From assembly GCA_030688365.1 (NCBI GenBank), contig JAUYIE010000018.1, forward strand, positions 33,973 through 97,972: a stretch of 64,000 bases of DNA, in the 5' to 3' direction. Origin of the DNA: a bacterium. Lineage in GTDB: Bacteria; Patescibacteriota; Patescibacteriia; JACQRZ01. Position 1 is the stretch's first letter; each line of letters begins with the position of its first letter. The position numbers and the translations under genes are program-made. Below, piece after piece: positions 4,089 to 62,300 of the stretch. The notes below the pieces were generated by a model. The model searched no databases, was not told where the DNA came from, and worked only from the letters and a program-made list of their open reading frames with translations.

Positions 4089-4100
4089 ACCTATACGTAA

Positions 4101-4982
4101 TTATTTCTGAACAACTGCCTCGCTAAAGAGAACGTAGTTAAAAAGCGATGATATACCTGATTGCGCCGGGAGTGTGATATGCAATTGCTGACGAACTCCC
4201 TGATAGTCTGCCTGTGGGGCGATTGTATACATATTACTCATCGCAACAGCAGAACCAGTACCGCTATCACCGTCGTAAAATTCTATATTCACTCCATAAA
4301 GATCACAGTACAACGAAGTAATCTGCAACACCATTGGTTTGTCCTGACCCAACAAAGAATCAGCTAAATCTGGATTAACAGTGACATCGTTAAATATCAC
4401 TTGCGCAGGCGCGCCTTCAGAAGGCGTTTTTACATATTCTTTTATATTACTAATTTTTGCAAAACTATCGTCCCATTGGACACTGCTGTCTCCTGTCCAT
4501 GTGGCAGCTCTCGCCTGTATCCAGGGTGCAACTGTATCCTCGGGATCACACGTACCTTGATTTTCCCATGACACTTTCATTGATTGAATATCGGTAACTG
4601 ATGTGTATCCGTTATCAAAATAAAGAGGAACAACGATTGATTGGTATTTTCCCAAACGAGTAAGACGCAAAATATCAGAACTAGTTTTAAATGTTTCACT
4701 GGTATCTAACACCCACGTAGCATCTTTGCCATTTATTGCAATAGTATCAGTTGTAGGATTTGGAGTGGTCGCACCCAATTGTCTGATCTGATACATTGTG
4801 CGTTCGGCCGCTGTCTCTGCGGTATAATACGCGACAATCGAACTGTCCACATTTCTCGCCTGTCTTAAGGAATTGACCGCGTAAATAGCAAATTCAACCG
4901 AAGCAACTAAAATGCCAGCAGTGAGAATGATTGCCATTACTACGACTGATCCTGATTGATTTTTTTTGAGAGTATACAACAT
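4101..4982 (-). CDS. pilus-associated / atypical pilin-like protein with N-terminal TM helix
   Basis: 293 aa. N-terminus KKNQSGSVVVMAIILTAGILVA resembles a prepilin leader plus hydrophobic helix but lacks Glu+5. It is third in a row of pilin-like genes. Confidence 0.5.
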   Translation of the reverse strand: MLYTLKKNQSGSVVVMAIILTAGILVASVEFAIYAVNSLRQARNVDSSIVAYYTAETAAERTMYQIRQLGATTPNPTTDTIAINGKDATWVLDTSETFKTSSDILRLTRLGKYQSIVVPLYFDNGYTSVTDIQSMKVSWENQGTCDPEDTVAPWIQARAATWTGDSSVQWDDSFAKISNIKEYVKTPSEGAPAQVIFNDVTVNPDLADSLLGQDKPMVLQITSLYCDLYGVNIEFYDGDSGTGSAVAMSNMYTIAPQADYQGVRQQLHITLPAQSGISSLFNYVLFSEAVVQK

Positions 4983-33556: not shown

Positions 33557-36500
33557 TTATCGGATCGCTCCTGAATATGCAATGGCGCGTACGACATCCC
33601 ATTCTGCAGCGCTTACCGGTACTTTTTTGTATATAGCACGGAAGCTCTTTATGGCAGCCGCTTCTGACTTCAGGTTACGCTTATCGCTACGTAGCCCGTA
33701 TGCCATGACAGCAATCGCCGCTTGATCATGAGGATTGGAAAGATCAGCATCTCTCAAGTATACTTTCTTAAATGAACCGATAACCGCCTTTTCACGCTTT
33801 GCATTGAGCGTACCAGGCCAGCGACCGTTTGCGATCTTGATGACATCTTCCCAATCACCGCTTGAAGTTGGAACATATCCAAATGCTGCTTCAAAACTAT
33901 TCACGACACCTGCACGTTCCCCTGCACCCAGTACGACAGTTGTGGGTGTGCCGTATGTTACAAAGTTTAACACTTGAGCTTTTGTAGCTGCTGGTGTCAG
34001 TGAAGACACAACGCGCGCGACAATCGTTGATTCATATTTTTTCTCCATACCAATATCTCTTTTTTGTCCAACATCACTGGCAAGAGTCGCAACGTCGTTC
34101 ATTTTAACTTTTTCCGCTTCTGCTTTTATCTTCGCCACTTGTTGAGCTCGCGCATCTGCGACACTCAAAGTTGGACTCGTGGTAACTGTCGTATCGGTCG
34201 TAACGGTATTCTCAGTTGTAGTCGTGTTATCGGTCGTGGTCGTATCTGTCGTGGTTGAAGTGGTGGCAGTTGAAGATGATGAAGACGAAGGACCTGAGAC
34301 AATTACTCCTCCACTTGAGGATGCGGCGGCGGCTATCGTGACAGATGATGCGCTACTTGCTGCTGATTCTTGATCAGAAGCATTCACAGCGCTTACTTTA
34401 TAGTAGTAGGTAGTGCTTGCACTCAAGCCAGTCGCAGTATAGGAAGTAGTGGTTGGTGATGCCAAGAGCGGAAATGAGGAATTATCCGTTGATTGATAAA
34501 TATTGTATGTGCTCGCTCCATCTACTGCTGTCCATGTCAAACGTGCTGTAGACCCTGTACCTGCATCAGTAACGGTCAGACCAGTCGGAGTGGAAGGTGC
34601 GCCATCTGCCGGCATCAACGGTGCGAAATCCGAAAAGTGAGCAACTGTAGCAGTTAATGTATTGTTATCTGTATCAACGGTCGTCGTCAATGTATCGTAC
34701 GCCTGCGTAGCATCATTCCATGTGCCAATCACCAAGTTGGCTTCAGAGGATCCTGCAGGAATATCAGCTTCGTCATACGGGATCACAATAGTAACACTGT
34801 CATTCAAGCTAGAAAGCTTTTGTCCTGATGAATCCACTGCGGTAATCGTAACTGCATTTTTTGACAGAATACTACCACGTGGCGGTGTTGGCATAGCAGT
34901 GTTGATCTTTGTTGTAACAGTCGCCGCATTAGATCCTGTACCCAGTGCGTTTGCGGGAATATTCAATTTGAAGTTATCACCAATATCACTGTTGGTAAAA
35001 AATCCTCCGGAAGTCGGTGTCACTGTTTCTGGTCGTTCCGGTTTTACCACAAAGTTTGGAATTGCAGTGAGAGACATATCTTGACTTGATACACTACTAC
35101 CTCCCACAATAACTGACATCGGACCACCTTCGTATCCTGGTGCATGCGCTCGAACACTCCATGTTCCCGTATCAACTGCCAATGAATATGCACCCGCAGA
35201 ATCAGTCTGTGCTACAGAATACCCTCCAAGACCATCATTAGCATCCACAAAAGCATTGGAAACACCAGATCCAGAGATGCTAATAGTACCGGTAATCGTT
35301 TTTGAGGCGGTGGTTAATGCAATAGTGCCCACTGCTGTTGCAGCCGTAACTGCAACAGCACTTTCAGCGGGAGACCGATACCCTGGTTTATCTACACGTA
35401 GATTATAAATACCGGCCGGCACGCTGACAGAAAACGTTCCATTTGATGCTGTTTGAGATCCGAGTGCAATGACATTTGTCGTACCTGTCGCTGCTCCTGT
35501 CAACGATACCCATGCACCAGAAAGATTTGATCCATCCCCAGTCACTGTACCCGTAACTGCAAATATCGCTCCTGCTGCTGCAGTATGAGTGATGGTACGT
35601 GTTGTATTTACACCTGTTGTTTCACCAATCTTTCCATAGGCAGGGTGTCCCACGCGAACAGTGTAGGTTCCTGGTGGTACATTCACTGTATAGACAGCAT
35701 TGGCTCCGGACGTTGTACTAACATTAGTGAAGTTACCGCGTCCATTTGAATCACGTACATCAACACCGGCATTAGTAACCGGATTAGTCCCGTCTGTTAC
35801 ATTGATTGTGAGAGTTATCGGCGCGCCAAGTGTACAATCCTGACCTGAAGTTGTTGTATCTGCGGCAACAGCGACACTCGTGAGTGGTGTCCCTTCTCCC
35901 ACGCCAGGGAAGAAACACTTCACCGTATATGTACCGGCAGGTACTTTCACTGTATATGTTCCATCAGTAGCGGTAATTGTCATATTTCCACTTGTTCCAT
36001 CAGCGGTTTCAGCTCGAACCATAACTCCTTGTTGTGCAGTCCCTCCTTTAGTCACTGTTCCTCTAATCGATCCCATAGATAATGTTTCTGCAGAAAAATC
36101 TTGCCCCGTCGCATTACTTGAGCTAATAACAATCGTCTTGGTACCAAGACGACCAAAACCAGGAGCAAACGCTTCTACCACCCATGTTCCCGCGCTCACA
36201 TAGAGAGTATATGCACCATTTGCATCAGTCGGACCACCTACAAAGTTTGAAGAATCTCCTCCTACGGCAGTGGTATCAGCACTGGATGTCACTTTTCTTC
36301 CAGAAACACCCGCATAGGGGATCGCATTACCTGCGTCGTCTTTGATCGTACCACTGATAGTGAGTGATGTTGTTCCAGCGCTCAATCTAAAAGTAAGACT
36401 TGAAGGGGTATTGGATGCGGCACCAACCGTAATCTGCTTATCTGGTACAGGAGGCATACCGGGTTTAAACACACCACATAAATAAACACCTTGGGTTACA

Positions 36501-39500
36501 TTCACGGTAAACGTACCTGTTGTCGTGGTTTGTGTGCCAGTTCCAAAACCATCTGCCATACCGGTCGTAGATGCTGCTACAGGACGACAAAATATATTTG
36601 CAGTGGATACACCCGTACCATTGGAATCTAAAACAAAACCAGTAATTGTTTTATTTGCCGTTGTTAAAGTAAATGCAAGACCTGTAACTGTTTCTTCCGT
36701 AACACTAGCAGATGCTACATTTACTTGAACATTTGCCGGAGGCATAAAAGTAAAGTCTGGTGGTGGTGATGGTGGTGCGCCTGGTGTCATAAATTGTTCT
36801 GGTACTGATGGTCCCACGCCGACATTATATGTTTCATTTGCTGATACAGGTAACGAATATGCATCCGCTCCACCAGAAAGTGTGATGGTCTTTTTTGTAA
36901 AACCATTTGGCGATGAAGCGAAGACATCGATAATTGTACCATTTGTTCCTGTCACCGTTCCTGAAATCGTAATAGCTGCAGCGCTACTCAATGCAAAGTT
37001 TTTTACTGTATTTGCGCTTATAATAATAGGTTGAGGTGCAGAGTTAAACGCCACGTCAATATTTGTATTTGGTTTAATACCCACCATATAATCCCCATCA
37101 GCGAGATTGCTAAAGGTAGCAACACCATCAACCACATCATTTGCAGTCGTCGCTTCTTTACCGCCGGTAGCTGGGCTAAACAAGAAAGCAGTTACGTCAT
37201 TGATTCCTTCCCCGGCATCATTATTTCCATCTGTATTTGCATCCTTAAATACATTTACCGTCAGAGTACGTGATCCTGTCGCACCCAAGAAAAATGGAGA
37301 CGAAGTTTTACTTTCTAAAATAGACCTATAATTATCGGCGGTATCTCTTGTCGAGACCCCAACAGTATAACCAGATGAAGACGGAACAGTTGAATTGACA
37401 ATACCTGTCAAATCAACGCATACAAACGCATTTGCAGAAGTTGCCGCACCTGCTGTATTGATAGTTACTGTTCCTGCATCTGCGTCACCTGCTACTGCCC
37501 CCAACGTAACAGTACCTGTCATTGGTCCGTTTATATCACTGTTACAAAAACTTGCAGTACCTGCCGTCGCTTTACCGACATTGGTGACGTCAAATCCCGC
37601 AGGAAATGTAAGTACGATCTGACCGAGTACGGGAATAGATGTCGTGGCCAGAAATTCAAGCTTATAGTTACTTGTCGCGCCTGCTGAACGTACCATTGGG
37701 GTTACGCGTGTCGGATTCATACCCTGCATACCCGGATCCATCGCCGGCCCGTTTCCAGGACCAAGTTGTCCGCCGGTAGTATCAGAATCTTGCACTGTAC
37801 CGTATGCCACATTATTGGGTGGTGTACCGGTAGTGTCTATACTATTATTTGCCAAATCTTGTACCGCTGGAGTGACCGTGACTTTGAACGTACTGCTATT
37901 TTGTAGAGCGAGACCAGTAATATTTGCCGTCTTTGTTTCACCATCATATGTGACTGTCTTTCCAGAAAGTGAAGCTGATGTACCCACCGGACTCTCTAAC
38001 GCATAGTTTGCGATGTTATCAGCCGCGTTAGGACCACCGCCTGATTTTACTTGTTCAGAGAAAGTAATTGCAACACCGAAGTTATCGGCACCCGAAAACG
38101 TCACTTTTGGAGCAGTACTATCCGTCGTATTATTGGTCGTAAAGGTGGAAGTATAATCATTTGCAGGTGTTGCCGCGCCCAACTGGAGTCCCGCTACACT
38201 TTTAACACCACTGGATCCCGCTAGAGCACGAATACGATACTCTGTGCTCCCGAGAAGTTGTGCTGCAGGCGTAAAGTTTGCTGAACGACTTCCTGGATTA
38301 TAGGTAACCGCACCGGTGATATAACTATCATCTGACGTTTTTTGAAGTTTAATTGTGGAGGTAGTAATCGTAGATGGATCTATGTCTTTTGAAAATCCAA
38401 TACTGATGGACGACGAACGACTTACTCCTGTCGCGCTATTCGTAGGAGAAGTACCTAAGACTGTTGGCGCAGTCGCATCTACTGCACCGGCTGTACGAAA
38501 CGATAGAAAGAAATCAGCAGATGGCGTATCGGTTGTACTGTAAGCGGAAGAAAGTACTTTGGCAACATAGCCAGTATTTACTGCCAGTGCGCTTGCTGGG
38601 GTTATGGTTACTGTTTTTGTTGCAGAATCATACGTATTGGTTGCCGAAACTGCCGCACCAGGTGCACCATAATTATCTAAAAATAATCCAACATTAGCAG
38701 GATTGGTTACCGAATTGGTTCCACTTGAACCGCCTGAAACTGACATATCAACTGAAAACGTAATTTTCACAACACCATTTGGTGGAAACTGTTGATTGCC
38801 GCCTTGTGGAATAGAAGACTGCACAAACGGCGGAGTGGTATTCGTCCCACTAACTGCCCCTGTTGAAAACGTTACAACTGCATTACTTGCCAAGGCATTT
38901 CCAGCCAAGTCTGTAACTGATGTTGTCGCAGTAAGCGTGTAACTACTGGAAATAGTTAACGGTGATGATGAATTATCTAAACGCAACGCAGTGTGGGAAA
39001 CACCTGTCGCAGGAGACGTCACCATATGAAATGCATATGATCCGTTATTTGCAGCATTTGCGGTGGTTGATGCAAAGAGCATGTCACCAAAAGTAAAGGC
39101 AGTCACCTCATCTGTTGCAAGTCCTTGTGCTGCTGGCGTCAACTTACTCATTTGACTACTGTCTTCAACTAAAGAAGAGGCCGCATCAGTTCCATCAAGA
39201 ACAGCGGTACTTTCTCCAAAACCCTCCACAGATGACAAACCTCCTGCCGTTGTCACCAAATGCCATCCATAACTTCCGCCAGCTAGTTGAACAAATACCA
39301 AATCACCTTGTGACACTGCCAGCGTACCCCCACCAGTTACCCCGTTATCGGTCGCTGTTGCATCCATTGCCATACTGCTGACACGAGATCCAGAAACAAG
39401 AGACGGAACTGCCTCATCACCATCAAAACGAAGTGCTTCATCATCAACCGTAGTCCCGGCGGTCACCATATGCCATGCATATCTATCAGAACTATTAGCA

Positions 39501-40618
39501 ACCACAAGCTGGCCGACAATCAATGCGGTAGAGCTTCCCGCTAATCCAGTTTCGGTAGCGGATGCGATTTTTGTTAATTGTTGACCTCCAAATAGTGGAA
39601 ACCCGTTTACTGCAAATGTTCCACCGGTCAATGTCGCATTTGTAACAACCCCAAGTTCAGGCGGAAACGTATCTCGCTGAAACAATACTATATCTCCAGC
39701 ACTTGGAGTTGTATATGTACCATTTGGCACAAATGATCCTGCCCCAAAAGCAGGGAAAAACCCGCTTCCACCAGTAGAAAGTTGTGCAAAACGTGAACTT
39801 GCTGTATAGGTCGGCGCGCTAGAAACAGTCACATCAAATCCATCAGGAAATGGTTTTATACTAACACCAACAGGTGTAACCCCTTGAGTTAGGGTAATGT
39901 TATCAGGCGTAAACGTAGATCCATCCATCTGTTCATTAAACTGCATGTGTAAAAATGTATTGATTGGCACATTTGTGGATGCTGTCATTGGGGCTGTACT
40001 TGAAACAGTCGGTGCGACAGTATCAATTGTAATGGCAGAAGTAACCACAGGGGTTATTGTTGGAGAACCAGAATCCGTGACTATACCATCCGCAGGCACT
40101 GTGAATGTAAACGCATGATCATTAACTGCCCCCGCTGATGTTCGGTATACCAAATAATATGTACCCGCGGCTCCAGGGGTTGTAAGAGTTAATGTTGTGG
40201 ATCCATTACTCCATGCAGATACTGTATCCATAGGCACTACGACATCCGTACCATCAAATGATCCAGCCGTATCCCCTGCATCGTCGTACAAAGCAACACC
40301 GGAAGCGACTTCCGATGCTGCATCAAGAGTAGCCAAATCAGCTGTCGTAAAACCAGATGCACCACTGTCGGTAGCAGTAACAGTAATTGAGTTTAAAACT
40401 TCACCAGCATCAACAGCAATCACGAGCTTAATGGCTGCAGCCGGCACGCTCGACGCTAATGCTCTGTTATTCGCGTAATTGATAAGACTCGTCACTGTTG
40501 GTGTGACGGTTGCCAACGCCACTTGCGCTGTAAACGGCGCAACTCCCACCGAACCAAATATTGTCATTGCTACAACAAATGTGTGTAGTATCCGACGGAA
40601 CCGAACATTTCCTCTCAT
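33557..40618 (-). CDS. giant secreted S-layer-like surface protein (2353 aa). It contains SbsA-type Ig-like (Big_5-like) domains, many carboxypeptidase-regulatory-like beta-sandwich repeats, an FN3 domain, a Thr/Asp-rich linker and a conserved about 200-aa C-terminal domain.
   Basis: Signal peptide MRGNVRFRRILHTFVVAMTIFGSVGVAPFTAQVALA. Big_5-like segments (IDTVAPTVSSTAPMTASTNVPINTFLHMQFNEQMD; DATAPTVLGTSPTNSATGVSRSSSISIGFSKDID). Repeated ...GTYTVKVPAGTYTVKCFFPGVG / VPPGTYTVRVGHPAYG / VPAGIYNLRVDKPGYR modules. FN3 (PSTPTGLTVTDAGTGSTARLTWTAV...TTYYYKVSAVNASDQES). Linker TTSTTTDTTTTDNTTTTENTVTTDTTVTT. Confidence 0.85.
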   Translation of the reverse strand: MRGNVRFRRILHTFVVAMTIFGSVGVAPFTAQVALATVTPTVTSLINYANNRALASSVPAAAIKLVIAVDAGEVLNSITVTATDSGASGFTTADLATLDAASEVASGVALYDDAGDTAGSFDGTDVVVPMDTVSAWSNGSTTLTLTTPGAAGTYYLVYRTSAGAVNDHAFTFTVPADGIVTDSGSPTITPVVTSAITIDTVAPTVSSTAPMTASTNVPINTFLHMQFNEQMDGSTFTPDNITLTQGVTPVGVSIKPFPDGFDVTVSSAPTYTASSRFAQLSTGGSGFFPAFGAGSFVPNGTYTTPSAGDIVLFQRDTFPPELGVVTNATLTGGTFAVNGFPLFGGQQLTKIASATETGLAGSSTALIVGQLVVANSSDRYAWHMVTAGTTVDDEALRFDGDEAVPSLVSGSRVSSMAMDATATDNGVTGGGTLAVSQGDLVFVQLAGGSYGWHLVTTAGGLSSVEGFGESTAVLDGTDAASSLVEDSSQMSKLTPAAQGLATDEVTAFTFGDMLFASTTANAANNGSYAFHMVTSPATGVSHTALRLDNSSSPLTISSSYTLTATTSVTDLAGNALASNAVVTFSTGAVSGTNTTPPFVQSSIPQGGNQQFPPNGVVKITFSVDMSVSGGSSGTNSVTNPANVGLFLDNYGAPGAAVSATNTYDSATKTVTITPASALAVNTGYVAKVLSSAYSTTDTPSADFFLSFRTAGAVDATAPTVLGTSPTNSATGVSRSSSISIGFSKDIDPSTITTSTIKLQKTSDDSYITGAVTYNPGSRSANFTPAAQLLGSTEYRIRALAGSSGVKSVAGLQLGAATPANDYTSTFTTNNTTDSTAPKVTFSGADNFGVAITFSEQVKSGGGPNAADNIANYALESPVGTSASLSGKTVTYDGETKTANITGLALQNSSTFKVTVTPAVQDLANNSIDTTGTPPNNVAYGTVQDSDTTGGQLGPGNGPAMDPGMQGMNPTRVTPMVRSAGATSNYKLEFLATTSIPVLGQIVLTFPAGFDVTNVGKATAGTASFCNSDINGPMTGTVTLGAVAGDADAGTVTINTAGAATSANAFVCVDLTGIVNSTVPSSSGYTVGVSTRDTADNYRSILESKTSSPFFLGATGSRTLTVNVFKDANTDGNNDAGEGINDVTAFLFSPATGGKEATTANDVVDGVATFSNLADGDYMVGIKPNTNIDVAFNSAPQPIIISANTVKNFALSSAAAITISGTVTGTNGTIIDVFASSPNGFTKKTITLSGGADAYSLPVSANETYNVGVGPSVPEQFMTPGAPPSPPPDFTFMPPANVQVNVASASVTEETVTGLAFTLTTANKTITGFVLDSNGTGVSTANIFCRPVAASTTGMADGFGTGTQTTTTGTFTVNVTQGVYLCGVFKPGMPPVPDKQITVGAASNTPSSLTFRLSAGTTSLTISGTIKDDAGNAIPYAGVSGRKVTSSADTTAVGGDSSNFVGGPTDANGAYTLYVSAGTWVVEAFAPGFGRLGTKTIVISSSNATGQDFSAETLSMGSIRGTVTKGGTAQQGVMVRAETADGTSGNMTITATDGTYTVKVPAGTYTVKCFFPGVGEGTPLTSVAVAADTTTSGQDCTLGAPITLTINVTDGTNPVTNAGVDVRDSNGRGNFTNVSTTSGANAVYTVNVPPGTYTVRVGHPAYGKIGETTGVNTTRTITHTAAAGAIFAVTGTVTGDGSNLSGAWVSLTGAATGTTNVIALGSQTASNGTFSVSVPAGIYNLRVDKPGYRSPAESAVAVTAATAVGTIALTTASKTITGTISISGSGVSNAFVDANDGLGGYSVAQTDSAGAYSLAVDTGTWSVRAHAPGYEGGPMSVIVGGSSVSSQDMSLTAIPNFVVKPERPETVTPTSGGFFTNSDIGDNFKLNIPANALGTGSNAATVTTKINTAMPTPPRGSILSKNAVTITAVDSSGQKLSSLNDSVTIVIPYDEADIPAGSSEANLVIGTWNDATQAYDTLTTTVDTDNNTLTATVAHFSDFAPLMPADGAPSTPTGLTVTDAGTGSTARLTWTAVDGASTYNIYQSTDNSSFPLLASPTTTSYTATGLSASTTYYYKVSAVNASDQESAASSASSVTIAAAASSSGGVIVSGPSSSSSSTATTSTTTDTTTTDNTTTTENTVTTDTTVTTSPTLSVADARAQQVAKIKAEAEKVKMNDVATLASDVGQKRDIGMEKKYESTIVARVVSSLTPAATKAQVLNFVTYGTPTTVVLGAGERAGVVNSFEAAFGYVPTSSGDWEDVIKIANGRWPGTLNAKREKAVIGSFKKVYLRDADLSNPHDQAAIAVMAYGLRSDKRNLKSEAAAIKSFRAIYKKVPVSAAEWDVVRAIAYSGAIR

Positions 40619-52907: not shown

Positions 52908-54035
52908 CTATCTTTTGGCTCCTGAATACGCGATCGCACGCACTACATCCCATTCACGGGCAGTCGTGGCGATTTTGCCATACACTGCTCTAAATGTTTT
53001 AAGTGCGGCCGCTTCGCTGTCAAGATTACGATGCACTGATCGCAGACCATATCCCATGACCGTCACTGCTGCGCTGTCATTAGGATTTTTCATGTCTGCT
53101 GCGCGTTTGTAAACCAACTTAAAGTTGATTTTTGCGCGATCTTCGGCTGCTTTGCTTGTTTGAGAAGGAAAGCGACCGTTTGCGATCTTGAGTGCGTCTG
53201 ACCATCCACTTTCCGTTGTAGGAAAGGAGCCAAATGCTGCCAAGTAGCTATTGAGTACACCGGCGCGCTCTCCTGCCCCCAACTTAAGGGTAGTAGGCGT
53301 ACCGTATGTAATGAACGCTACCATTTCTTGCTTATTACTTGTATCCACTGTTTGACCTTTTGAAATAGTAGCAAACAATGTTGTCTCCGTCTTTTGCTCT
53401 GCTGATAGACTTGATTTGGCGTTGACTGAAGCGGCGAGTTCTGCCGGAGTAGATGAGATCGTCGCTGATTCAGCTTTTATCGCTTCAATCTGTGCTGTAC
53501 GTGCGTCTTCTACGGAAGTAGTAGGTGCAGGCGTAGCAACAGTCGTCGTATCAGTTGTTGTTGTGTCTGTCGTTGTGTCGGTTGTAGTGTCTGTTGTTGT
53601 GTCAGTCGTAGGAGCAGACGTTGAAGTACCACCACCACCACCGCCAACTACACCGCCACTTGCTGCGGGTGTACTCGCTACAGTACATTCCGTTGCGGTT
53701 GGCGTAAATACAACACTCGTAAGTGGTCCAGTCAACGTTACAGAATTTTGTGATGATGTACATGTCTGCGTGTATGCGCCACCGTTTGTCAAAAGATATC
53801 TATCTGCAGACACAACAGTGAATGTACTTCCACTAGGAACTGTAACGGTAAAGGTTGTCGCGCCGACATCAAGTTGTGTAGCAACAGACCCCGTAGAGAT
53901 CGTTAACGTAATATCATTCACTGACATGTAAGTGTCTGTACTGTATGTGAGATCCGCTGCTGATGCCAACTGTCCTACTCCTGCGCTTGCAAGCACGAAG
54001 ACACCAACCACCAGAGAAACTATTTTTTTCTTCAT
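52908..54035 (-). CDS. secreted protein (375 aa): signal peptide, about 100-aa beta-rich N-domain, (TDTTT)n linker, and a C-terminal domain paralogous to that of the 2353-aa giant protein
   Basis: Signal peptide MKKKIVSLVVGVFVLASAGVGQLASA. Linker TDTTTDTTTDTTTDTTTTDTTT. The C-terminus aligns to the giant-protein C-terminus at about 50% identity (TYGTPTT.LGAGERAGV.NS..AAFG...NGR.P...NPND.AA..VMGYGLRS..RNL.SEAAA.K.FRA.Y.K....EWDVVRAIAYSGA.R). Confidence 0.65.
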   Translation of the reverse strand: MKKKIVSLVVGVFVLASAGVGQLASAADLTYSTDTYMSVNDITLTISTGSVATQLDVGATTFTVTVPSGSTFTVVSADRYLLTNGGAYTQTCTSSQNSVTLTGPLTSVVFTPTATECTVASTPAASGGVVGGGGGGTSTSAPTTDTTTDTTTDTTTDTTTTDTTTVATPAPTTSVEDARTAQIEAIKAESATISSTPAELAASVNAKSSLSAEQKTETTLFATISKGQTVDTSNKQEMVAFITYGTPTTLKLGAGERAGVLNSYLAAFGSFPTTESGWSDALKIANGRFPSQTSKAAEDRAKINFKLVYKRAADMKNPNDSAAVTVMGYGLRSVHRNLDSEAAALKTFRAVYGKIATTAREWDVVRAIAYSGAKR

Positions 54036-54068: not shown

Positions 54069-56675
54069 TTATTCAATACAGATGTAATTAATGACTTTTG
54101 CTGATGCGGTCCACGCCGATGCTGGAGTAATAGTAAGTGCTGTAGCTGATGTCGTGGCAACAGGTTTAATGGTACCAGCATCCTCAAAATCAGTAGCTGT
54201 TGTCGCATCACCTGCTGAAATTATACAGACAGGTGCAGCACTATATGTCTTATCAAATGCGAGAATGATAGCATTTGTGTCAGCCGTTGTCGCTGTACGG
54301 ATCTGCCCACGCATGTCAGTACATGTTCCTGCACCATTTCCAGCAGTACAAGTTGGAACTTGTCCAGCATATGTAGCAACAGGTGCTGTTGTCTGCGTTG
54401 ATCTCAAGTGAGAACCAGCTTGGTCACCTGCATTGATAATAACCGCGCCGGTTGCGTCACCGATAGTGGTACGCGTTCCTTGACCGATCGTCAATGTAAT
54501 ATTTCCTCCTGCCTTTGAAGCATCTTGACCCGCACCGGCAGCACCTGATGCGATTGTTACATTTCCACCCGCACCATCAGTCGTCGCACCGTCTCCACCG
54601 GCACCTGCCGTCAGAGTAATCGCACCACCGGCTCCACCGGTAAGACCTGTTCCCGACCCACCGGCACCGGCGGTAAGAGCGTATGCTCCACCAGCACCGT
54701 TTGTACCAGCACCAGTTGAGTTCACACCACCGGCACCAAGAGTAATAGTCATTGCTCCACCAGCACCAGAATCAGCAGAGGCACCTGTGGCGATTCCACC
54801 ATCACCTGTATTGATCGCGAGTGCGCCAGCAGCACCACCAGCTTCTGCTGCGGCAGGAGTACTACCCGCACCTGTTGTTACTGTTATCGCGCCACCAGCT
54901 CGTGCTGCCGTACCAGCGGTACCACCAGCACCTGATGTGATAGCAATCGCGCCACCTGCAGCATCAGTGCCAGCATCGCCACCTATTATAGAAACTGTAC
55001 CTGGTACGTTGTCAAGATCTGCTGTTCCAGACTGGACAGTCACTGCACCTGATACTCCACCAGCCGCAACACCAGAGCCCAAGGTAACCGCACCTGTCGC
55101 ACCAGCTGTTGATGCTCCGGAAGCAATCGTAACTGCACCAGATGCACCTGTTGCTGTTTGAGTTCCACCAGTGATAGCTACTGCACCACCGGCACCTGTC
55201 GCACCAGCGGCACCACCAGTGATAGCAATGGCACCACCGTTACCGGTACCGTTTCCATCACCACCGACAAGACTTGCAACCCCACCAACAGCGTCAGTCG
55301 TACCTGCACCACCTGTCACTGACACGGCACCACCAGCACCAGAGGTTGCGCCACCAGCACCACCAGTTAATGATCCAGCACCACCGGCACCTGTCGCACC
55401 AGCGGCACCTGCTACCAAGGTAACAGCACCACCGTTACTTGCCAGACGTCCCGCACCAGCGGTAAGTGTTACTGCACCACCAGCCGCGCCTGTCGTACTT
55501 GAACCCGCACCAGCTGCACCAGCGGTAATACTTACTGCACCACCGGCACCTGCTGTACCAGCACCACTTGTCGCTCCACCGGCACCTGCTGTTAAGTTCA
55601 ATGCACCACCGGCACCTGCTGTACCAGTTGTATCAGCTCCACCGGCACCAGAAGTTATGGCATAGGCACCACCGGCACCACCGGTACCAACCACTGCACC
55701 ACCACCTGCACCCAGTGTCCATGCTACCCCACCACCGGCACCACCGGTACCAGCATCTGAAGCGGCTCCACCAGCACCAAAAGTTACTGCCAAAGCACCA
55801 CCGGCACCACCGATACCAGTTACGGTGACTCCACCTGCACCTGTTGTTATAGAATGAGCTCCACCTGCACCACCGGTATTATCCAACGTTGCACCACCAC
55901 CTGCACCCGATACTGAAGTGATTGCACCACCGGCTGAAGGAGATGCGATAGCGGTTGTACCCGCTGCACCTGCCGTCATGGTGATTGCACCACCGGCTGC
56001 TCCGCCACCCGTACCACCTGCACCTGCTGTTACTGCTACCGCACCACCGGCAACGGTGCCTGCACCGTTATTTCCTGCCTGTACTGTAACGGTTCCCGGC
56101 ACACCTGTTGTTGTTGTTGCACCTGATGACAATGTAACTGCACCAGAAGCCGCTGCTGTTGCCGTTCCTGATCCGAGAGTCAAAGCACCCGAAATACCAG
56201 CCGAGTTACCTGATGTCAAAGAAACAGCACCGGTCGTTCCTGAAGTCGTTGTTGTTCCTGATGCGAGAGTCAAAGCACCCGAAGCAGCAGCTATGGCTGT
56301 TCCAGAAGCGAGACCGACTGCACCCGAAGCGGCGGCAGAAGCACCCGAAGCGAGTGTTAACGCACCAGTCGTTCCTGAAGTCGTTGTTGTTCCCGACTTA
56401 AGGTTTACTGCACCTGAATCCTGTGCGGTACCTGCACCGGAGGTGAGTGTCAACGCACCACCAGTCGCTGCTGTACCTGCACCTGCAGTTGCGGTAATCG
56501 CGCCCGCTGAAGCTGCAGTCACTGTGTATGCGCCATCAGACGCCACTGTGTTTGCGCTAAATGTAAGCGCCGCCATTGCAGGTTGGGTGATGCCAAACAT
56601 CAACGCCAACGCCGCGACGCCAACCACCGGCACAATACGTGCTCGTGTGTGGCGCAAGAAAGAGTGTTCTCTCAT
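54069..56675 (-). CDS. secreted Gly/Ala/Thr-rich low-complexity repeat protein (868 aa) with non-repetitive Cys-containing C-terminal domain
   Basis: Signal peptide ...ALMFGITQPAMA. Hundreds of G-A-G-G-A / T-A-G-A-G-G units. The last about 110 aa are non-repetitive with 4 Cys. The DNA is strongly GC-rich relative to its surroundings. Confidence 0.65.
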   Translation of the reverse strand: MREHSFLRHTRARIVPVVGVAALALMFGITQPAMAALTFSANTVASDGAYTVTAASAGAITATAGAGTAATGGALTLTSGAGTAQDSGAVNLKSGTTTTSGTTGALTLASGASAAASGAVGLASGTAIAAASGALTLASGTTTTSGTTGAVSLTSGNSAGISGALTLGSGTATAAASGAVTLSSGATTTTGVPGTVTVQAGNNGAGTVAGGAVAVTAGAGGTGGGAAGGAITMTAGAAGTTAIASPSAGGAITSVSGAGGGATLDNTGGAGGAHSITTGAGGVTVTGIGGAGGALAVTFGAGGAASDAGTGGAGGGVAWTLGAGGGAVVGTGGAGGAYAITSGAGGADTTGTAGAGGALNLTAGAGGATSGAGTAGAGGAVSITAGAAGAGSSTTGAAGGAVTLTAGAGRLASNGGAVTLVAGAAGATGAGGAGSLTGGAGGATSGAGGAVSVTGGAGTTDAVGGVASLVGGDGNGTGNGGAIAITGGAAGATGAGGAVAITGGTQTATGASGAVTIASGASTAGATGAVTLGSGVAAGGVSGAVTVQSGTADLDNVPGTVSIIGGDAGTDAAGGAIAITSGAGGTAGTAARAGGAITVTTGAGSTPAAAEAGGAAGALAINTGDGGIATGASADSGAGGAMTITLGAGGVNSTGAGTNGAGGAYALTAGAGGSGTGLTGGAGGAITLTAGAGGDGATTDGAGGNVTIASGAAGAGQDASKAGGNITLTIGQGTRTTIGDATGAVIINAGDQAGSHLRSTQTTAPVATYAGQVPTCTAGNGAGTCTDMRGQIRTATTADTNAIILAFDKTYSAAPVCIISAGDATTATDFEDAGTIKPVATTSATALTITPASAWTASAKVINYICIE

Positions 56676-56825
56676 AGCTTGTAAGCTTATTAATATTAAA
56701 AATCAAAACACAAAATAATTTTTGCCTTCGTAAGTAAGCAGCTGTCAAACAGTATAGCACTTTTTCTCATGAACTCACCTGTTGATAACATTATTTATCA
56801 TTTTTCTGCAAAAAAAATATAAATG

Positions 56826-57470
56826 CTATGGTAAAGCACTTATATCCACTTCATCACCAAGTTGTATGCCGTTCCTTTGGATAAACCCAGCCGGTACTTC
56901 CAAAATATAGTTTATTGGCACGTTTGGCTCAAAAGTATCAGGCACACTTTGAGAAGAAATCTCTGCTTTCATATCCACCACAAGACGACTATCATTTATC
57001 CAGATAAGATCCACATCAAAGATCATACCTTCCGCACTATAACTATATCGGCTGGGATTGCTTAACACATACAACATACCATGCCCCCGCGGTGGTGCAT
57101 CTCGGCCAACCAGCCCTTTTTCCTGTTTTGCACGCGTATCAGCTACTTCAACAGTCATGGGGATATCAGCAATAGTAATCGGTATTTCTTTAAAATCATC
57201 AGGACTGTCTGTACTTGATACATCAAGAGAATCACCAGCACCGTCTGGTGTCAAGCTATATGGCGTTGTAATAATACCTTCCCCGCTAGAGAGAGGTATC
57301 TCACCTGAAACTGCCGATTCAGAAATATCTGCCGTTATTAGATCATCGGTGTTTTTCATAGTAGTCGGTACAGAGGATGTGGCTGTCCTACCAAAAATCA
57401 ACCACCCTGCAACCGCAACCAAAAGCACTATAACAATAGCTATTCCTATGTAAAACGTCTTTGCTGTCAT
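56826..57470 (-). CDS. membrane-anchored DUF192 (COG1430) family protein
   Basis: N-terminal TM FYIGIAIVIVLLVAVAGWLIF. C-terminal region ...GMLYVL...GMIFDVDLIWIN...YILEVPAGFIQRNGIQLGDEV matches the DUF192 pattern. ATG at 57468-57470 (the track start is a GTG). Confidence 0.55.
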   Translation of the reverse strand: MTAKTFYIGIAIVIVLLVAVAGWLIFGRTATSSVPTTMKNTDDLITADISESAVSGEIPLSSGEGIITTPYSLTPDGAGDSLDVSSTDSPDDFKEIPITIADIPMTVEVADTRAKQEKGLVGRDAPPRGHGMLYVLSNPSRYSYSAEGMIFDVDLIWINDSRLVVDMKAEISSQSVPDTFEPNVPINYILEVPAGFIQRNGIQLGDEVDISALP

Positions 57471-57479
57471 ATTACCCAC

Positions 57480-57854
57480 TTATTTTCCCGCTTTTTTCAG
57501 AGCATCTGCTGCAGGACTGGTATCATCAAGCGTTCCATAAAACATCACATTTGATTCATTGATATAGAGATCTTGTGGTGCCCAGACCGCTTCTGATAAC
57601 GGTACGAGTTGGAAAGTATCTTTTTCACCTTCTGCGCCAGCGGTCACGGACAAGAAATAGCCATTTGTCATCTTCAACCGAGGAAATGTCGTAAGTTTAC
57701 CCACATAAATCTGTCCTGTCTGCAGATATACCAATGAATATCCATCCCCTTCTTTGTTCCACATCTTCTTATACCCAAAATAACCAAGGATAAGCAATAC
57801 GATGATGATCACTACAGTCACTGTAGTCTTTGACCCAAGAGATTTCATTTTCAT
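57480..57854 (-). CDS. small membrane-anchored hypothetical protein
   Basis: From the internal ATG: MKMKSLGSKTTVTVVIIIVLLILGYFGYKK... The longer track start at 57959 would overlap the strong terminator of the upstream gene. Confidence 0.4.
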   Translation of the reverse strand: MKMKSLGSKTTVTVVIIIVLLILGYFGYKKMWNKEGDGYSLVYLQTGQIYVGKLTTFPRLKMTNGYFLSVTAGAEGEKDTFQLVPLSEAVWAPQDLYINESNVMFYGTLDDTSPAADALKKAGK

Positions 57855-57955
57855 AGAAACAATGCCGTTAAGTATGAATAAAAATAAGTATATACAGTAT
57901 ACCAACCACAAGATCAGTGTCAACAAAAAATAACTGCGCGTGTTACTACATATCC

Positions 57956-57993
57956 ACAAAAAAAGACCCTCGCCATAATGACGAGGGTCTTTT
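57956..57993 (-). terminator. strong Rho-independent (bidirectional-type) terminator after the 1361-aa surface protein gene
   Basis: 10-bp GC-rich stem AAGACCCTCG (57963-72) / CGAGGGTCTT (57982-91), loop CCATAATGA. An A7 run lies upstream on plus, giving U7 after the stem on the minus transcript. Confidence 0.7.
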
Positions 57994-58049: not shown

Positions 58050-61000
58050 TTAGTAGCTAAGCGTACCACCAAGGACAGGCATGTTTCTGGTATTTGTAAT
58101 AACACCATAGTTTACCTGGTCGTCCCAGTTGATATCAGCAACACCGGCGATATCAGCACGAAGTGTTTCGTCTGATGTCGCACCTGTGGTGTCACCTTTG
58201 ACGACAAACTTCATGGTCGTACCAGCAGCGATGCTTTGGCCAATAGTACCAGTGTATGCGATTGCCGCACTGTTCTGGTTGTTGGTTATAGCATTAGCTG
58301 CGGTAGCGCTCAAGTAGTTGAAGCCAATCGTCGCGTTGTTACTCAACTGACAAGCAGTGGTCGTAAGTTGAGTTGCGTTGGCGATTGCAGTAACCACACA
58401 GCCGGAATCACGGGTGACAGCAGTACCAGTAGAGTCATATCCCATGACATCTACCGTATCGCCGATAGCAAATCCACTAGTGCTTGCGACAGTGACAGTT
58501 GTGACAGTGTCAGCCAAGTCCGCGGTAAGCAAGCTTTGCGCACCGAAATACAGTTTACCAACACCTGGTTGAGCTGGTGCGTAGGTGACACCGACATCTA
58601 TACCAGCATAGCCGGAAATCGTACCGACAACAGTGATAGTAATGACAGTCGCTGATACCGCGGTCACAATACCGCGCAACGTGGTTGTTACAGACGTATC
58701 ATTGACTAACACGGTCGCACCGACGGGAATACCATCCCAGTCACCGGAAGTACCGGTAACAGCGAGAGATTGACCGTCTACCGCCGCGGAAACACTCACG
58801 AGATCCTGTACAGACGTTTCTGTAGCAAGAGGATTGATAGTGTCAGTACTCTTATAGAGATTAGCATTTCCTGTACCTGTCGTGTCAACAGAACCGGAAA
58901 TAGTAAGAGCAGCGTTGTTTAAGATCGCAGCATATCCACTGTTTGCAACCGCATCAAACTCTAAGATACTTGCACCAGCTCCAGCAACAGCTGTACCTGA
59001 AGGTGACGAAGATGCCTTATCAACAACAACAAGAGTTCTGTAGATCACCTGTGCAGTACCGGTTGCAGAAGTCACAGTTTCATCAATACCTTGACCTGAC
59101 TGTGCGCCACGAGTCGTGACGTTTGCGTTAGACGCGATATTGAGAGTATGTGAGCCACCGGAAACAGCTGAACCAAAGGATCCGACAGAACCCTTAAGGG
59201 TCAAAACTTTTGTCGTATTCTTTGGAATCACCCAGTTTGATGCCAATGTAAACGTTGCCGTTCCATCGGATTGCGCACTCAATGACGCAACAGTGCCAAG
59301 CAATGTTGAACCATCATACAACTTCAAGTTGGAGAGAGAACCTCCATAAGATGTTGTATCAGTGATTACGATTGATGAAACATTAGCATCTTCTGGTGAA
59401 CCAGCGGTAAAGTCAAAGATAGCTAATGTTTGATCGGTGTTACCCATGACGAGTTGACCTGCAACAGGAGTGGAAGCATTGGCAGTAATAGTCAATGTTC
59501 CAGTAGAAGCGATCACCAATGTCTGCAATGAGACAGCGGTCAATGCGGTTGTCGCGTCAGTACTTGTATTTGATCCAGTCGCTGTAGCGCTGACAAACTC
59601 AAGTCCGACTTCAGCAGTCGCATATCCATCAGCACCAGTCAAAATGTCTGCGTATGCATCAATCACATATTGTCCGCCTGCAGGGATATTCACTGTAGGT
59701 GAGAGACTAAATGTGAAGTCAGCATCAGCAGCACTTGACAAAGTACCTTGGACAGGAGCGAGTGCCACACCCTCATGCATCAGTACAAGATTCTGAAAGT
59801 TGCCCCCAAAATTTGAAGTCGCATCAGCGTCTTCATCTCCGAGTACAACCTGTGTGAGATTGACTGATTCACCTGAACCGGCAGTAAGAACAAGAGAACC
59901 GACCTTAATATTCGTCGCACCAACCACACCAGTAGGAGTAATTAATGACGAGTCAGCTACTGAAGTATTCTTTGCTCTACTCAATGCACCTGTCTGTGCG
60001 GTCAATGTGAGACCCGTTGCAGCTGAAGTAGCGACATTGGTCAAAGATGTCTGACCCGTCGCGTCTGTTGAACCCGCAACAAGACTGACAGTGATAGTAT
60101 CGTTCGCTGCGAGAGCTGTTCCTGTATTGGTGGTTGTATCAGCACGATACTCAAATACACCGGTAGTACCAGCAGGGATAACAACAGTGTTACCCAACGA
60201 ATATACTTCAGTTGTTACATCTGCGACAACAGTATCAGTAGTACCTACCTGTGAACCGTTGTAGTACAACTTACCATTATCTAGTTCGTCTGTAGCATCA
60301 AGATCAATCACTGAATTCACACTCACCCTGACATACGTAACCTTGATGTCCTCACCATTTGCTTTGTAATCAAAGCGGGCGAGTGCTTGGTCCGTCATAC
60401 CAGCAGCAATGTTGCCTGAAGGTGCGTCGGCTGAACGTGAAACAGTTAATGTACCGTTATTGATGTTGGTACCATCACCTGATGGATCTGGATCAGCAAC
60501 AGTAAAGGCCGCTCCTGCCAATGCTGGGGTTGTATCTACACCGTAGTTGGTGTCAGTTGATACAAAGTCAGCAGTTGAACGAATGGTGAACTTGAATGCA
60601 CGACCAGTACCTTTTGAAACAATACCCATCAAAACAAATACTTTGTTTTGTCCGGATGCGATTTCATAAGGAGTAGCAGACAAATCAAACGTAACTTTAT
60701 TGTCTGAACCAATCTGTGCCGTTGATCCTACCTGTGCTCCACCGACAGTCAACATCAAGTCTTGGATAGCATCAGTGGAGATCGTTCCCACCATTGTGAG
60801 GACAATCTTCTTGATTTGCATCTTCTGACTGTTTGCGACAGTAGTGAATCTCCACAATTCTTGTGAGTTTGCGCTTGGATCAATCGTTGCGGGGAAGGTA
60901 GTTGGAGCGGGGGTAATGTTGATATACCCAAGATCAGTGATAGCAGCGATGCTAAAACTGTTACCAGACATAGGATAACTTCCTGCGACGGTACCACCTG

Positions 61001-62135
61001 GCATCATGGTGATGTCAGAAGCAGCATTTACAGAAAAGTTAATTGTCTTGGTTCCTGAAAGAGCGGCAGCAATGTTTACACCCACCCAGATGGTCTTTGA
61101 ACCACCTGCAGGGATAGAGAACAAACCAGCTGCATTGTTGAAGGTAAAGACCTTACTGGAAGATCCTGACACTTCTGCAAGTTTGGTTGAACCCTCATAG
61201 AGGTAAAGATTGTTCACATCTGCGTCAACAGACACGCCACCTCGGGTTAATTTCAAGGTATTGATTGTCTGTGCCGCTGAAGTGCCGTTTGCAAAATTGA
61301 GCTTCAAAATAGGAGCAGCGTTTTGCATTACCAATGCGTCATCAGACAAAAGTGTGCCTGATGCCGGTGTGTCAGATGCTACGGATACAGTCAATGCGCC
61401 GGTAACGGGGACAGGAGTCGTTCCATTGCTCATAAATGTTGCAATGGAGCTTTCCATACCAGTGATACTGGTACCTACTGCCAACGTGTTGAAAACTGTG
61501 TCAGAGACAGTCTGAATGAATTCAGAGCGGAAGTTATTTGCGGTGAACGCATTGAAGTCCGCGATTTTTCGCTTTGTTGTACCATCAGCATAATAAATAT
61601 CTGATGATGATGCTGTCTTGATGAGACTTCCTGCAGACGGGGTTGAAGTAATAATACTGTCACCCGACGTGTAGTTGGTGAAGAATGCATCGTTGACGTC
61701 ATCAATCTGTTGATTCCAATTTGATCCATAAAGATCCATGGCGATTTGCTCGTTGGATACCCAACGAAGCTTGCCGCCTGGTTCTACTGCGTATACTTTT
61801 GGATCAGTGGTAATTTTCACGAGACGGGTACCTGCTCGATATACGACGTTACCGCCGATCGAGAGTGCTTGCAATTCCGCATCAGTGATTGTTTTCACTT
61901 GTGAGAAATCAGCAAACCAGGTCTTAAATGTTTTTTCATTAGGAAAAACATAACGCTTACCATCAGAACCATAGTAGTATACGGCTGCGCCTGAGGCCTT
62001 GATGAGGTCACCTGCTGCCAATGTTGTAGCCGCACTTACGGGTACAATGGAAGCAAACCCCATAGACCACAACACAGTGGTTGCCATTACAGCTGTGGTA
62101 AGAGCTTGTTTACCTGCTTTTAATACTTTTGACAT
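58050..62135 (-). CDS. giant secreted surface protein (1361 aa): signal peptide, about 150-aa N-terminal globular domain, long Thr/Ser/Ala/Gly/Val-rich beta-rich region
   Basis: Start at ATG 62133-62135, preceded by GAAAGGAAAG 8 nt upstream; the track's 62171 start has no spacing to its SD. Signal peptide MSKVLKAGKQALTTAVMATTVLWSMGFASIVPVSA. Remainder is low-complexity but non-identical repeats, ending ...GGTLSY. Confidence 0.8.
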   Translation of the reverse strand: MSKVLKAGKQALTTAVMATTVLWSMGFASIVPVSAATTLAAGDLIKASGAAVYYYGSDGKRYVFPNEKTFKTWFADFSQVKTITDAELQALSIGGNVVYRAGTRLVKITTDPKVYAVEPGGKLRWVSNEQIAMDLYGSNWNQQIDDVNDAFFTNYTSGDSIITSTPSAGSLIKTASSSDIYYADGTTKRKIADFNAFTANNFRSEFIQTVSDTVFNTLAVGTSITGMESSIATFMSNGTTPVPVTGALTVSVASDTPASGTLLSDDALVMQNAAPILKLNFANGTSAAQTINTLKLTRGGVSVDADVNNLYLYEGSTKLAEVSGSSSKVFTFNNAAGLFSIPAGGSKTIWVGVNIAAALSGTKTINFSVNAASDITMMPGGTVAGSYPMSGNSFSIAAITDLGYINITPAPTTFPATIDPSANSQELWRFTTVANSQKMQIKKIVLTMVGTISTDAIQDLMLTVGGAQVGSTAQIGSDNKVTFDLSATPYEIASGQNKVFVLMGIVSKGTGRAFKFTIRSTADFVSTDTNYGVDTTPALAGAAFTVADPDPSGDGTNINNGTLTVSRSADAPSGNIAAGMTDQALARFDYKANGEDIKVTYVRVSVNSVIDLDATDELDNGKLYYNGSQVGTTDTVVADVTTEVYSLGNTVVIPAGTTGVFEYRADTTTNTGTALAANDTITVSLVAGSTDATGQTSLTNVATSAATGLTLTAQTGALSRAKNTSVADSSLITPTGVVGATNIKVGSLVLTAGSGESVNLTQVVLGDEDADATSNFGGNFQNLVLMHEGVALAPVQGTLSSAADADFTFSLSPTVNIPAGGQYVIDAYADILTGADGYATAEVGLEFVSATATGSNTSTDATTALTAVSLQTLVIASTGTLTITANASTPVAGQLVMGNTDQTLAIFDFTAGSPEDANVSSIVITDTTSYGGSLSNLKLYDGSTLLGTVASLSAQSDGTATFTLASNWVIPKNTTKVLTLKGSVGSFGSAVSGGSHTLNIASNANVTTRGAQSGQGIDETVTSATGTAQVIYRTLVVVDKASSSPSGTAVAGAGASILEFDAVANSGYAAILNNAALTISGSVDTTGTGNANLYKSTDTINPLATETSVQDLVSVSAAVDGQSLAVTGTSGDWDGIPVGATVLVNDTSVTTTLRGIVTAVSATVITITVVGTISGYAGIDVGVTYAPAQPGVGKLYFGAQSLLTADLADTVTTVTVASTSGFAIGDTVDVMGYDSTGTAVTRDSGCVVTAIANATQLTTTACQLSNNATIGFNYLSATAANAITNNQNSAAIAYTGTIGQSIAAGTTMKFVVKGDTTGATSDETLRADIAGVADINWDDQVNYGVITNTRNMPVLGGTLSY

Positions 62136-62300
62136 AAAGTCTTTCCTTTCGTAGTTATTATTAGTGACCATCTCCAGCGAACCTTTGCGATTCCTTTGAG
62201 GAAAAGCGGTCTCGACCTTTACTGAAGCGGACTAGATACGGCTTTTAAAAAAGTTGCCCTTTTTAAGTTTCGTGCCTAGATTTTAAACAAAGGGGAGTTT

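Follow-up and report, generated by a model that had tools for sequence, protein, structure and literature searches.

A gene on the minus strand at positions 54069..56675 (stop codon at 54069..54071) of a 64-kb stretch of the patescibacterial contig JAUYIE010000018.1, referred to below as the window, encodes a Gly/Ala/Thr-rich protein of 868 amino acids, which we regard, with moderate confidence, as a Sec-exported fibre of the cell envelope, built like the receptor-binding fibres of phages and likely adhesive in its role. The gene, documented by open reading frame (ORF) listing, composition and codon-position GC content, comprises 868 codons without an internal stop, and its product contains 25.0% Gly, 24.0% Ala, 16.2% Thr and 7.0% Ser, Gly and Ala together making up 49%. 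A previous reading of the window made from its letters and translations (hereafter the sequence-only reading) had reported this ORF together with three ORFs on the opposite strand, and our ORF listing returned them all at exactly the same positions. The protein is divided into a predicted signal peptide, a long repeat stalk and a small C-terminal domain, termed the knob.

The knob comprises residues 756-868 (54072..54410, minus strand; 113 aa) and is characterized by the pattern SHLRSTQTTAP...TD.RG...F.K.Y..AP.C...NY.C.E. All four Cys of the protein (C776, C785, C817 and C866) are confined to its last 93 residues and are grouped as the pairs C817/C866 and C776/C785. The last ~115 residues were also found in the proteins P0002, P0003, P0004 and P0008, and an exhaustive search with a knob profile built from six sequences retrieved 920 cluster representatives at E<=1e-3, including 68 at E<=1e-10. 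Throughout the matches listed, which are proteins of 67-1582 aa, the domain stands at the extreme C-terminus, and its invariant or nearly invariant residues (T-D..G, F...Y..AP and (W)NY.C(I)E) are all present in the protein studied here. The distinct, non-repetitive, Cys-containing C-terminal domain noticed in the sequence-only reading is thus a real and widespread module. Named members of the wider knob family belong mostly to Patescibacteria (Colwellbacteria, ‘Patescibacteria group’), with one coming from a metagenome-assembled genome (MAG) labelled Deltaproteobacteria; no paralogue of the knob or of the N-terminus was found within the 64-kb window.

An AlphaFold2 (AF2) model of the knob, based on a 49-row alignment, reached a predicted local distance difference test (pLDDT) value of 88.9 and a predicted template-modelling score (pTM) of 0.82, and displayed a beta-sandwich with one helix. 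When this model was compared with BFVD by Foldseek, it matched two uncultured Caudovirales proteins (E 5.4e-6, template-modelling score (TM) 0.70; E 1.7e-4, TM 0.64) and a Marseillevirus ‘tail fiber’ (TM 0.61), followed lower down by a long series of H-type-lectin, gp53-like, minor-tail and tail-fibre tips. The nearest counterparts of the modelled fold therefore appear to be the tips of phage fibres and the H-type lectins. In 150 family members the positions of C817 and C866 were both occupied by Cys in 106 cases, both by aliphatic residues in 42, and by a mixture in 2; such co-variation is the signature expected of a disulfide bond and would fit an exported protein. In two members of the family the knob is preceded by 17-28 collagen GXY triplets, which makes this domain compatible with a trimeric shaft.

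The stalk (residues 58-755; 54411..56504, minus strand) consists, according to our unit table, of ~38 degenerate units, each composed of G-A-h-x-h-T-x-G (h, hydrophobic residue) followed by 7-15 residues of Gly, Ala, Thr or Ser. The period is 14-16 aa in the Ser/Thr-rich units at residues 73-228 and 481-575, and 19-23 aa in the GAGG-type units at residues 293-400 and 575-743; GGAGG occurs 6 times and GAGGA 15 times, both being set within units of 14-23 aa that carry the hydrophobic strand motif. The stalk repeat is common to 173 proteins at E<=1e-3. It accompanies PF09956 (Phage_cement_2) in P0017, head-decoration and virion-structural PHROGs in P0006 and P0009, C1q in P0012, and Peptidase_S74 in P0018 and P0072. 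Peptidase_S74 is an intramolecular chaperone of trimeric beta-helical fibres. The stalk ending, ..GG.I.L.PG....G..G.V.I.., is kept across the fibre and phage-type groups, and this conservation favours homology over mere compositional likeness. Both stalk and knob are united in P0004, the gene of which lies directly downstream of the genes for a portal protein (phrog_156, 3e-107) and a major head protein (phrog_283, 4e-54). Since the same stalk and knob modules are found in phage virion proteins, the fibre would work as a phage-type receptor-binding fibre displayed by a cell.

Two peculiarities of this phage relative may be mentioned separately. On its P22-like phage contig (L006, 5987..9755) a GIY-YIG homing-endonuclease-like gene is located between the major head gene and the gene of P0004, and the N-terminus of P0004 is hydrophobic and signal-peptide-like, which is unusual for a virion protein. 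A pattern scan of viral contigs found no relative, a weak negative result, as the scan needs exact peptide patterns.

At the other end of the protein, residues 1-35 (56571..56675, minus strand) have the features of a Sec-type signal peptide, namely a basic n-region (R2, R8, R11, R13), a hydrophobic core IVPVVGVAALALMFGI and the sequence A33-M34-A35 followed by A36, with cleavage predicted after A35; this agrees with the signal peptide assigned in the sequence-only reading. The orthologues possess equivalent signal peptides, ending in AxA directly before a conserved ALT(F/L) motif. The mature N-terminus, ALTFSANTVASDG (residues 36-50; 56526..56570, minus strand), conforms to the motif A-[AV]-L-T-[FL]-x-A-x-[TS]-V..G, which likewise follows the signal peptide without a gap in L001, L002, L003, L007, P0122, P0132, P0136 and P0151.

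Four other loci carry orthologues of the same architecture. The one in L002, from a MAG labelled Saccharibacteria, is 671 aa long, and that in L003, from an Uhrbacteria MAG, has 876 aa. In L007, a metagenome contig of 250 kb, the ORF spans 967 aa (~940 aa from the likely start), with a knob 61% identical to ours. In L001, a metagenome scaffold from ENA (ANAN16-1; 2841..4513), a run of Ns in the repeats splits the gene into two called genes. A comparison of three orthologues showed collinearity, at 45-48% identity for L002 and L003, the indels corresponding to whole units, and single units are recognisably orthologous between genera, as exemplified by GAGGALAVTFGAGGA..GGGVAWTLGAGG, which is also present in the Uhrbacteria orthologue. 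The gene order is conserved as well: a giant envelope protein, a small membrane protein, the fibre, and a secreted protein of 345-397 aa. The peptidoglycan-binding domain PG_binding_1 occurs in the counterparts of the giant protein in L002 (at the N-terminus of a 1468-aa protein) and L001, and also in the L002 counterpart of the downstream secreted protein. The surface-protein interpretation given in the sequence-only reading was supported; the gene cluster and the connection with structural proteins of phages had gone unnoticed in it.

On these grounds, the following model can be proposed. The fibre protein would be secreted via the Sec pathway, and its mature N-terminus (ALTF...) may dock it on the cell surface. 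With one short beta-strand motif (G-A-h-x-h-T) per unit, the ~38-unit stalk would form an extended beta-structured fibre, probably a homotrimer, as in phage fibre shafts; an indirect hint of such trimerization is given by the S74, C1q and collagen fusions in the relatives. The disulfide-stabilised beta-sandwich knob would then represent the distal, ligand-binding end, the ligand probably being a glycan, and attachment to another cell or to a surface would be the likely role. Patescibacteria that have been cultivated grow attached to bacterial hosts, and their adhesion factors beyond type IV pili are largely unknown (PMC10633639, PMC12206443); it is the fit to this epibiotic life that makes the attachment role likely. 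The fibre is a concrete and conserved candidate for such a factor, encoded in a cluster with peptidoglycan-binding envelope proteins. A wider statement is put forward only tentatively, and we consider it possible but rather doubtful at present: Patescibacteria would show on their own surface a phage-type receptor-binding fibre, Sec-exported, encoded in a conserved wall-protein cluster and combining an H-lectin-like knob with a Gly/Ala-rich stalk whose fold has no solved relative, and the cell would use it to recognize its host cell and attach to it.

A number of observations weigh against the proposed fibre. The 868-aa protein gave no matches to Pfam or NCBIfam at E<=1 and none to PHROG models, and it contains no LPXTG motif, transmembrane helix or peptidoglycan-binding domain of its own; its association with the cell is inferred from the neighbouring genes only, and its predicted Sec signal peptide was called by eye. 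Foldseek comparison of the knob with PDB yielded weak matches (E ~0.1, probability 0.90-0.94, TM 0.37-0.47), which comprised the phi297 tailspike, Helix pomatia and Helix aspersa agglutinins, R-type pyocin fibres, discoidin II, the Sf6 tailspike C-terminus and SLL-2. The sequence link to H-type lectins is weak too: PF09458 (H_lectin) matched one of 56 knob-family members at 2.5e-4, below the curated thresholds, while hhalign placed the knob profile on the C-terminus of P0028, a Levyibacteria protein (68%, E 4.7e-5) that in turn matches H_lectin at 0.0058, likewise below the curated threshold. The full-length AF2 monomer (61-row alignment) had a pLDDT of 51 and few strands, being unusable for a fold search, and the stalk could be partly disordered, judging by this model. 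Finally, the literature search returned no description, experimental or other, of the fibre family, which is therefore undescribed so far, as far as that search reached; a ‘glycine-rich’ match (PMC13622651) was set aside, as it concerns a host Actinobacteria effector.

PF09458 did not match the 868-aa protein itself at E<=1, searches of PDB sequences with the whole protein and with the knob profile produced chance-level matches only and no solved structure related to either, and the full-length sequence search returned weak, repeat-driven matches of 105 bits at most. Two unannotated modules are defined in this work, the C-terminal knob and the Gly/Ala-rich stalk repeat, for which there is no Pfam, NCBIfam or PHROG model and no solved structure.

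Among the other explanations, the one that survives best is a surface protein folded as a monomeric beta-solenoid (beta-helix), in which each unit of 14-23 aa makes one coil and the C-terminal domain serves as a cap. We consider it unlikely, and the same degree of doubt applies to its comparison with ice-nucleation or antifreeze solenoids or with pectate-lyase-like adhesins. The regular recurrence of the G-A-h-x-h-T strand motif at 14-16 and 19-23 residues speaks for such a fold, as does the positional conservation of units between genera, which implies a folded structure. However, the AF2 monomer gave no confident solenoid, there is a single clear strand motif per unit, and the repeat is fused elsewhere to modules of trimeric phage fibres (Peptidase_S74, C1q, cement proteins), while collagen repeats occur in members of the knob family. 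The glycine-rich beta-helix suggested in the sequence-only reading is possible though unproven, the monomer model being poor.

Still less probable, in our opinion, is an elastomeric, for the most part disordered coat or spacer rich in Gly and Ala, similar to PE-PGRS or glycine-rich proteins, in which the C-terminal domain alone would be structured. The Gly+Ala content of 49%, the pLDDT below 60 across nearly the whole stalk of the AF2 monomer and the lack of any solved structure related by sequence are in line with it. Against these stand the strictly periodic hydrophobic pattern of the stalk, its unit-by-unit conservation at 45-48% identity between MAGs labelled Uhrbacteria and Saccharibacteria, and the absence of a PE domain.

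It is very unlikely that the gene is a tail- or head-fibre gene of a phage or prophage lying in the chromosome and encoding a virion component rather than a cellular protein. In favour of such an origin, P0004, with the same stalk and knob, belongs to a phage structural module, relatives of the stalk carry cement or decoration domains, and the knob fold matches phage fibre tips. Yet no phage genes were found within ~10 kb on either side of the fibre gene, its neighbours being genes for a DUF192 protein, a TPR protein, a subtilase (with FG-GAP repeats), sugar epimerases, HtrA, a release factor and ComEC; genes for a DD-carboxypeptidase, a DUF5667 protein and ribosomal proteins also belong to the surroundings. 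In addition, a Sec signal peptide is predicted at the N-terminus, the four-gene envelope cluster is kept in four other Patescibacteria loci, and the GC content at the third codon position (GC3) is native. An assembly artefact or collapsed repeat, which would leave the ORF real but its length and unit number wrong, is the least credible explanation, as the N-gap inside the repeats of the orthologous scaffold L001 and the excess of exact 20-mer repeats are outweighed by a frame intact through 868 codons without Ns, by the degeneracy of the DNA units (60-86% identical, with no exact repeat longer than 32 nt) and by collinearity with the orthologues of 876 and 967 aa, whose assemblies are independent.

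The same measurements bear on the assumption of the sequence-only reading that the repeat number is hypervariable and the locus prone to collapse, which was not borne out for this copy. Apart from the divergence of the stalk units at the DNA level, Tandem Repeats Finder detected short degenerate arrays only (64-80% matches), the longest of which, with periods of 63 and 129 nt, are situated at 55537..55841, and the 32-nt match mentioned above is a direct repeat, the longest exact one in the gene. Exact repeated 20-mers numbered 33 versus 0.3 in codon-shuffled versions of the same protein, which fits old duplications combined with restricted codon choice. No Ns are present in the fibre gene or anywhere in the 64-kb window. 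The positional conservation of units between genera speaks against the assumption too. Two observations on the family favour it: the orthologues vary in length from 671 to 967 aa through indels of whole units, and the N-gap of L001 shows directly that genes of this family are able to disrupt an assembly from short reads. A target protein of a diversity-generating retroelement was also considered and rejected, given that neither a template repeat nor an evident reverse transcriptase was found in the window: a blastn comparison of the gene with the remainder of the window gave only chance matches of <=25 nt, and a crude [YF]xDD scan of ORFs longer than 250 aa over the 64 kb hit only the subtilase and an epimerase.

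The gene forms a GC-rich island, as the sequence-only reading had stated, with a GC content of 0.53-0.60 compared to 0.40-0.47 in the flanks (500-nt windows), although these surroundings are merely moderately AT-rich. The GC content at codon positions 1, 2 and 3 is 0.64/0.75/0.28, and the GC3 value of 0.28 compares with 0.31-0.41 in seven other genes of the window. As the rise is confined to positions 1 and 2, whereas GC3 is native, the island is a consequence of the GGN, GCN and ACN codons for Gly, Ala and Thr. The DNA of the fibre gene is native, with native wobble usage, and not foreign or imported.

The three ORFs opposite the gene, all on the plus strand, are located at 54787..55161 (124 aa, Ala/Pro/Val-rich), 55171..55665 (164 aa, Pro/Ala/Val-rich) and 55918..56718 (266 aa, Ala/Pro/Val-rich), and we judged all of them to be non-coding. 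They are held in one plus-strand frame, the positions 1, 2 and 3 of which pair with the sense positions 2, 1 and 3. As this frame shares the wobble base with the sense frame, it inherits the low GC3 (0.24-0.35 in the antisense ORFs) and translates to Pro, Ala and Val. Across the gene, the antisense frame contains 7 stops versus none in the sense frame, in agreement with the view of the sequence-only reading that these ORFs are spurious; equivalent shadow ORFs also lie opposite the orthologues, where they are interrupted at different places. Codon-position GC was rejected as a test of the strand because of the common wobble position: the codon-usage check named in the sequence-only reading showed GC3 to be native, but it could not discriminate between the strands. 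Three features uphold the coding strand assigned earlier: an ORF free of interruptions, the N-terminal signal peptide, and the conservation of the C-terminal domain. For annotation practice this means that Gly/Ala-rich genes yield long antisense ORFs on the sense wobble position, which makes GC3 unfit for choosing the strand.

Downstream of the fibre gene, and separated from it by only 33 nt, lies a gene for a secreted protein of 375 aa with a (T-T-D)n linker (52908..54035, minus strand), and this spacing suggests that the two genes may be co-transcribed. Its equivalents are present in L002, L003 and L007, and its N-terminal domain is 47% identical (E 8e-23) to the product of the gene downstream of the L002 orthologue. 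The 375-aa protein also contains a GGGGGG run, the (T-T-D)n linker being encoded by a 12/24-nt tandem array at 53556..53611, and the gene has an antisense shadow ORF of its own at 53416..53931 (plus strand). Upstream of the fibre gene there is a 150-nt AT-rich spacer (56676..56825, minus strand) with an extended -10-like sequence, TGcTATACT, located ~75 nt ahead of the ATG; a Shine-Dalgarno sequence was not obvious in this spacer, and the consensus scan listed no promoter there.

The spacer is followed by the gene of a DUF192 protein, directly upstream at 56826..57479 (minus strand; PF02643, E 1.5e-20), which is absent from L001, and by that of a small membrane protein of 159 aa (57480..57959, minus strand), which matches no family. 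Proteins similar to the latter, recognized by eye and unscored, adjoin the fibre gene in L001, L003 and L007 and have the motif ..VYL.TG.IY.GKL....L.PL.E.VWAP.. in common, for which the pattern ..YLTTGE.Y.GKL...L.PL.E..WAP.. was also noted. The giant envelope protein (58050..62171, minus strand; 1373 aa) has no Pfam match, and it aligns with its 1468-aa counterpart, encoded upstream of the fibre gene in L002, at 27% identity over 808 aa (E 1e-38); it is possibly wall-anchored or S-layer-like and travels with the fibre gene.

Elsewhere in the window, the EF-G protein (28339..30408, minus strand) is 100% identical to an NCBI protein annotated ‘MAG: elongation factor G [bacterium]’, 91% identical to a protein of a ‘Patescibacteria group bacterium’ and 80-81% identical to several Uhrbacteria proteins, which marks the window as part of a Patescibacteria chromosome; in GCA_023246095.1, with an EF-G 92% identical, synteny around EF-G differs from that of the window. 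Another very large, probable surface protein (2353 aa; 33557..40618, minus strand) contains Big_5, CarboxypepD_reg, PEGA and fn3 domains. Nearly every long ORF of the window, including the block of ribosomal-protein, EF-G and EF-Tu genes, is on the minus strand, and the cumulative GC skew drops steadily over 48-58 kb; both features suggest strong co-orientation with replication. No tRNA genes or Rfam families were found in the 64 kb.

When compared with known systems, the fibre protein meets with several partial counterparts. BclA of the Bacillus exosporium and other collagen-like fibres with a globular, trimerising C-terminal head are likewise secreted or surface filaments, in which a beta-sandwich head stands at the C-terminus of a Gly-rich, repetitive stalk. 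Collagen-type GXY runs are found in two members of the knob family, while no GXY periodicity is seen in the fibre protein, which does not match Pfam Collagen either, and the assignment to collagen-like proteins was rejected for this reason; moreover, the head of the fibre protein is not C1q/TNF-like by sequence. An RTX protein was rejected as well, the GGxGxD nonapeptide (GG.G.D) having 0 occurrences in the protein and PF00353 not being matched.

The likeness to mycobacterial PE_PGRS proteins, drawn in the sequence-only reading, is one of composition only, with Gly/Ala-rich, GGAGG-type low-complexity sequence in a GC-rich gene, to which the predicted surface exposure may be added. It does not extend further, as the PE_PGRS proteins possess the PE domain (PF00934) and a type VII secretion signal, both absent from the fibre protein, which has a Sec-type N-terminus instead, belongs to a Patescibacterium, and displays a regular hydrophobic strand motif and a folded C-terminal knob. 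The H-type lectins (Helix pomatia agglutinin, the C-domain of discoidin II, SLL-2; PF09458) have a small beta-sandwich, which the modelled knob may resemble; however, the knob scores below the Pfam gathering threshold, its TM values to them are just 0.37-0.47, and the Cys817-Cys866 pair and the GHLxSxQTTAP neck are features of the knob family and not of H-type lectins.

Phage capsid cement and decoration proteins (fusions with PF09956, e.g., P0017; P0006 and P0009) have the same G-A-G-G-A-h-x-h-T stalk repeat and the same stalk ending, but differ in possessing a capsid-binding N-terminal domain and another C-terminal domain, and in lacking a signal peptide. A further parallel is offered by phage tail-fibre or receptor-binding proteins with an H-type-lectin- or gp53-like knob and by R-type pyocin fibres, all of which combine a repeat shaft with a small C-terminal beta-sandwich tip. 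The tip fold is shared with the knob (TM 0.61-0.70 against BFVD), so that the knob has the fold of a fibre tip, and the relative with both modules, P0004, is encoded in a phage structural module. The fibre gene studied here is not; unlike phage tail-fibre genes, it encodes a Sec signal, lies in a chromosomal envelope cluster, is conserved across Patescibacteria and has no PHROG match by sequence. On its sequence features, the protein belongs to an unnamed family defined by a signal peptide, an ALT[FL] N-terminus, a T/G/A-rich stalk and a GHLxSxQTTAP...WNYxCIE knob, and it can be taken as the cellular equivalent of the fibre proteins of phages. If Patescibacteria do display such a phage-type fibre, adhesion modules would have been exchanged between episymbiotic bacteria and phages.

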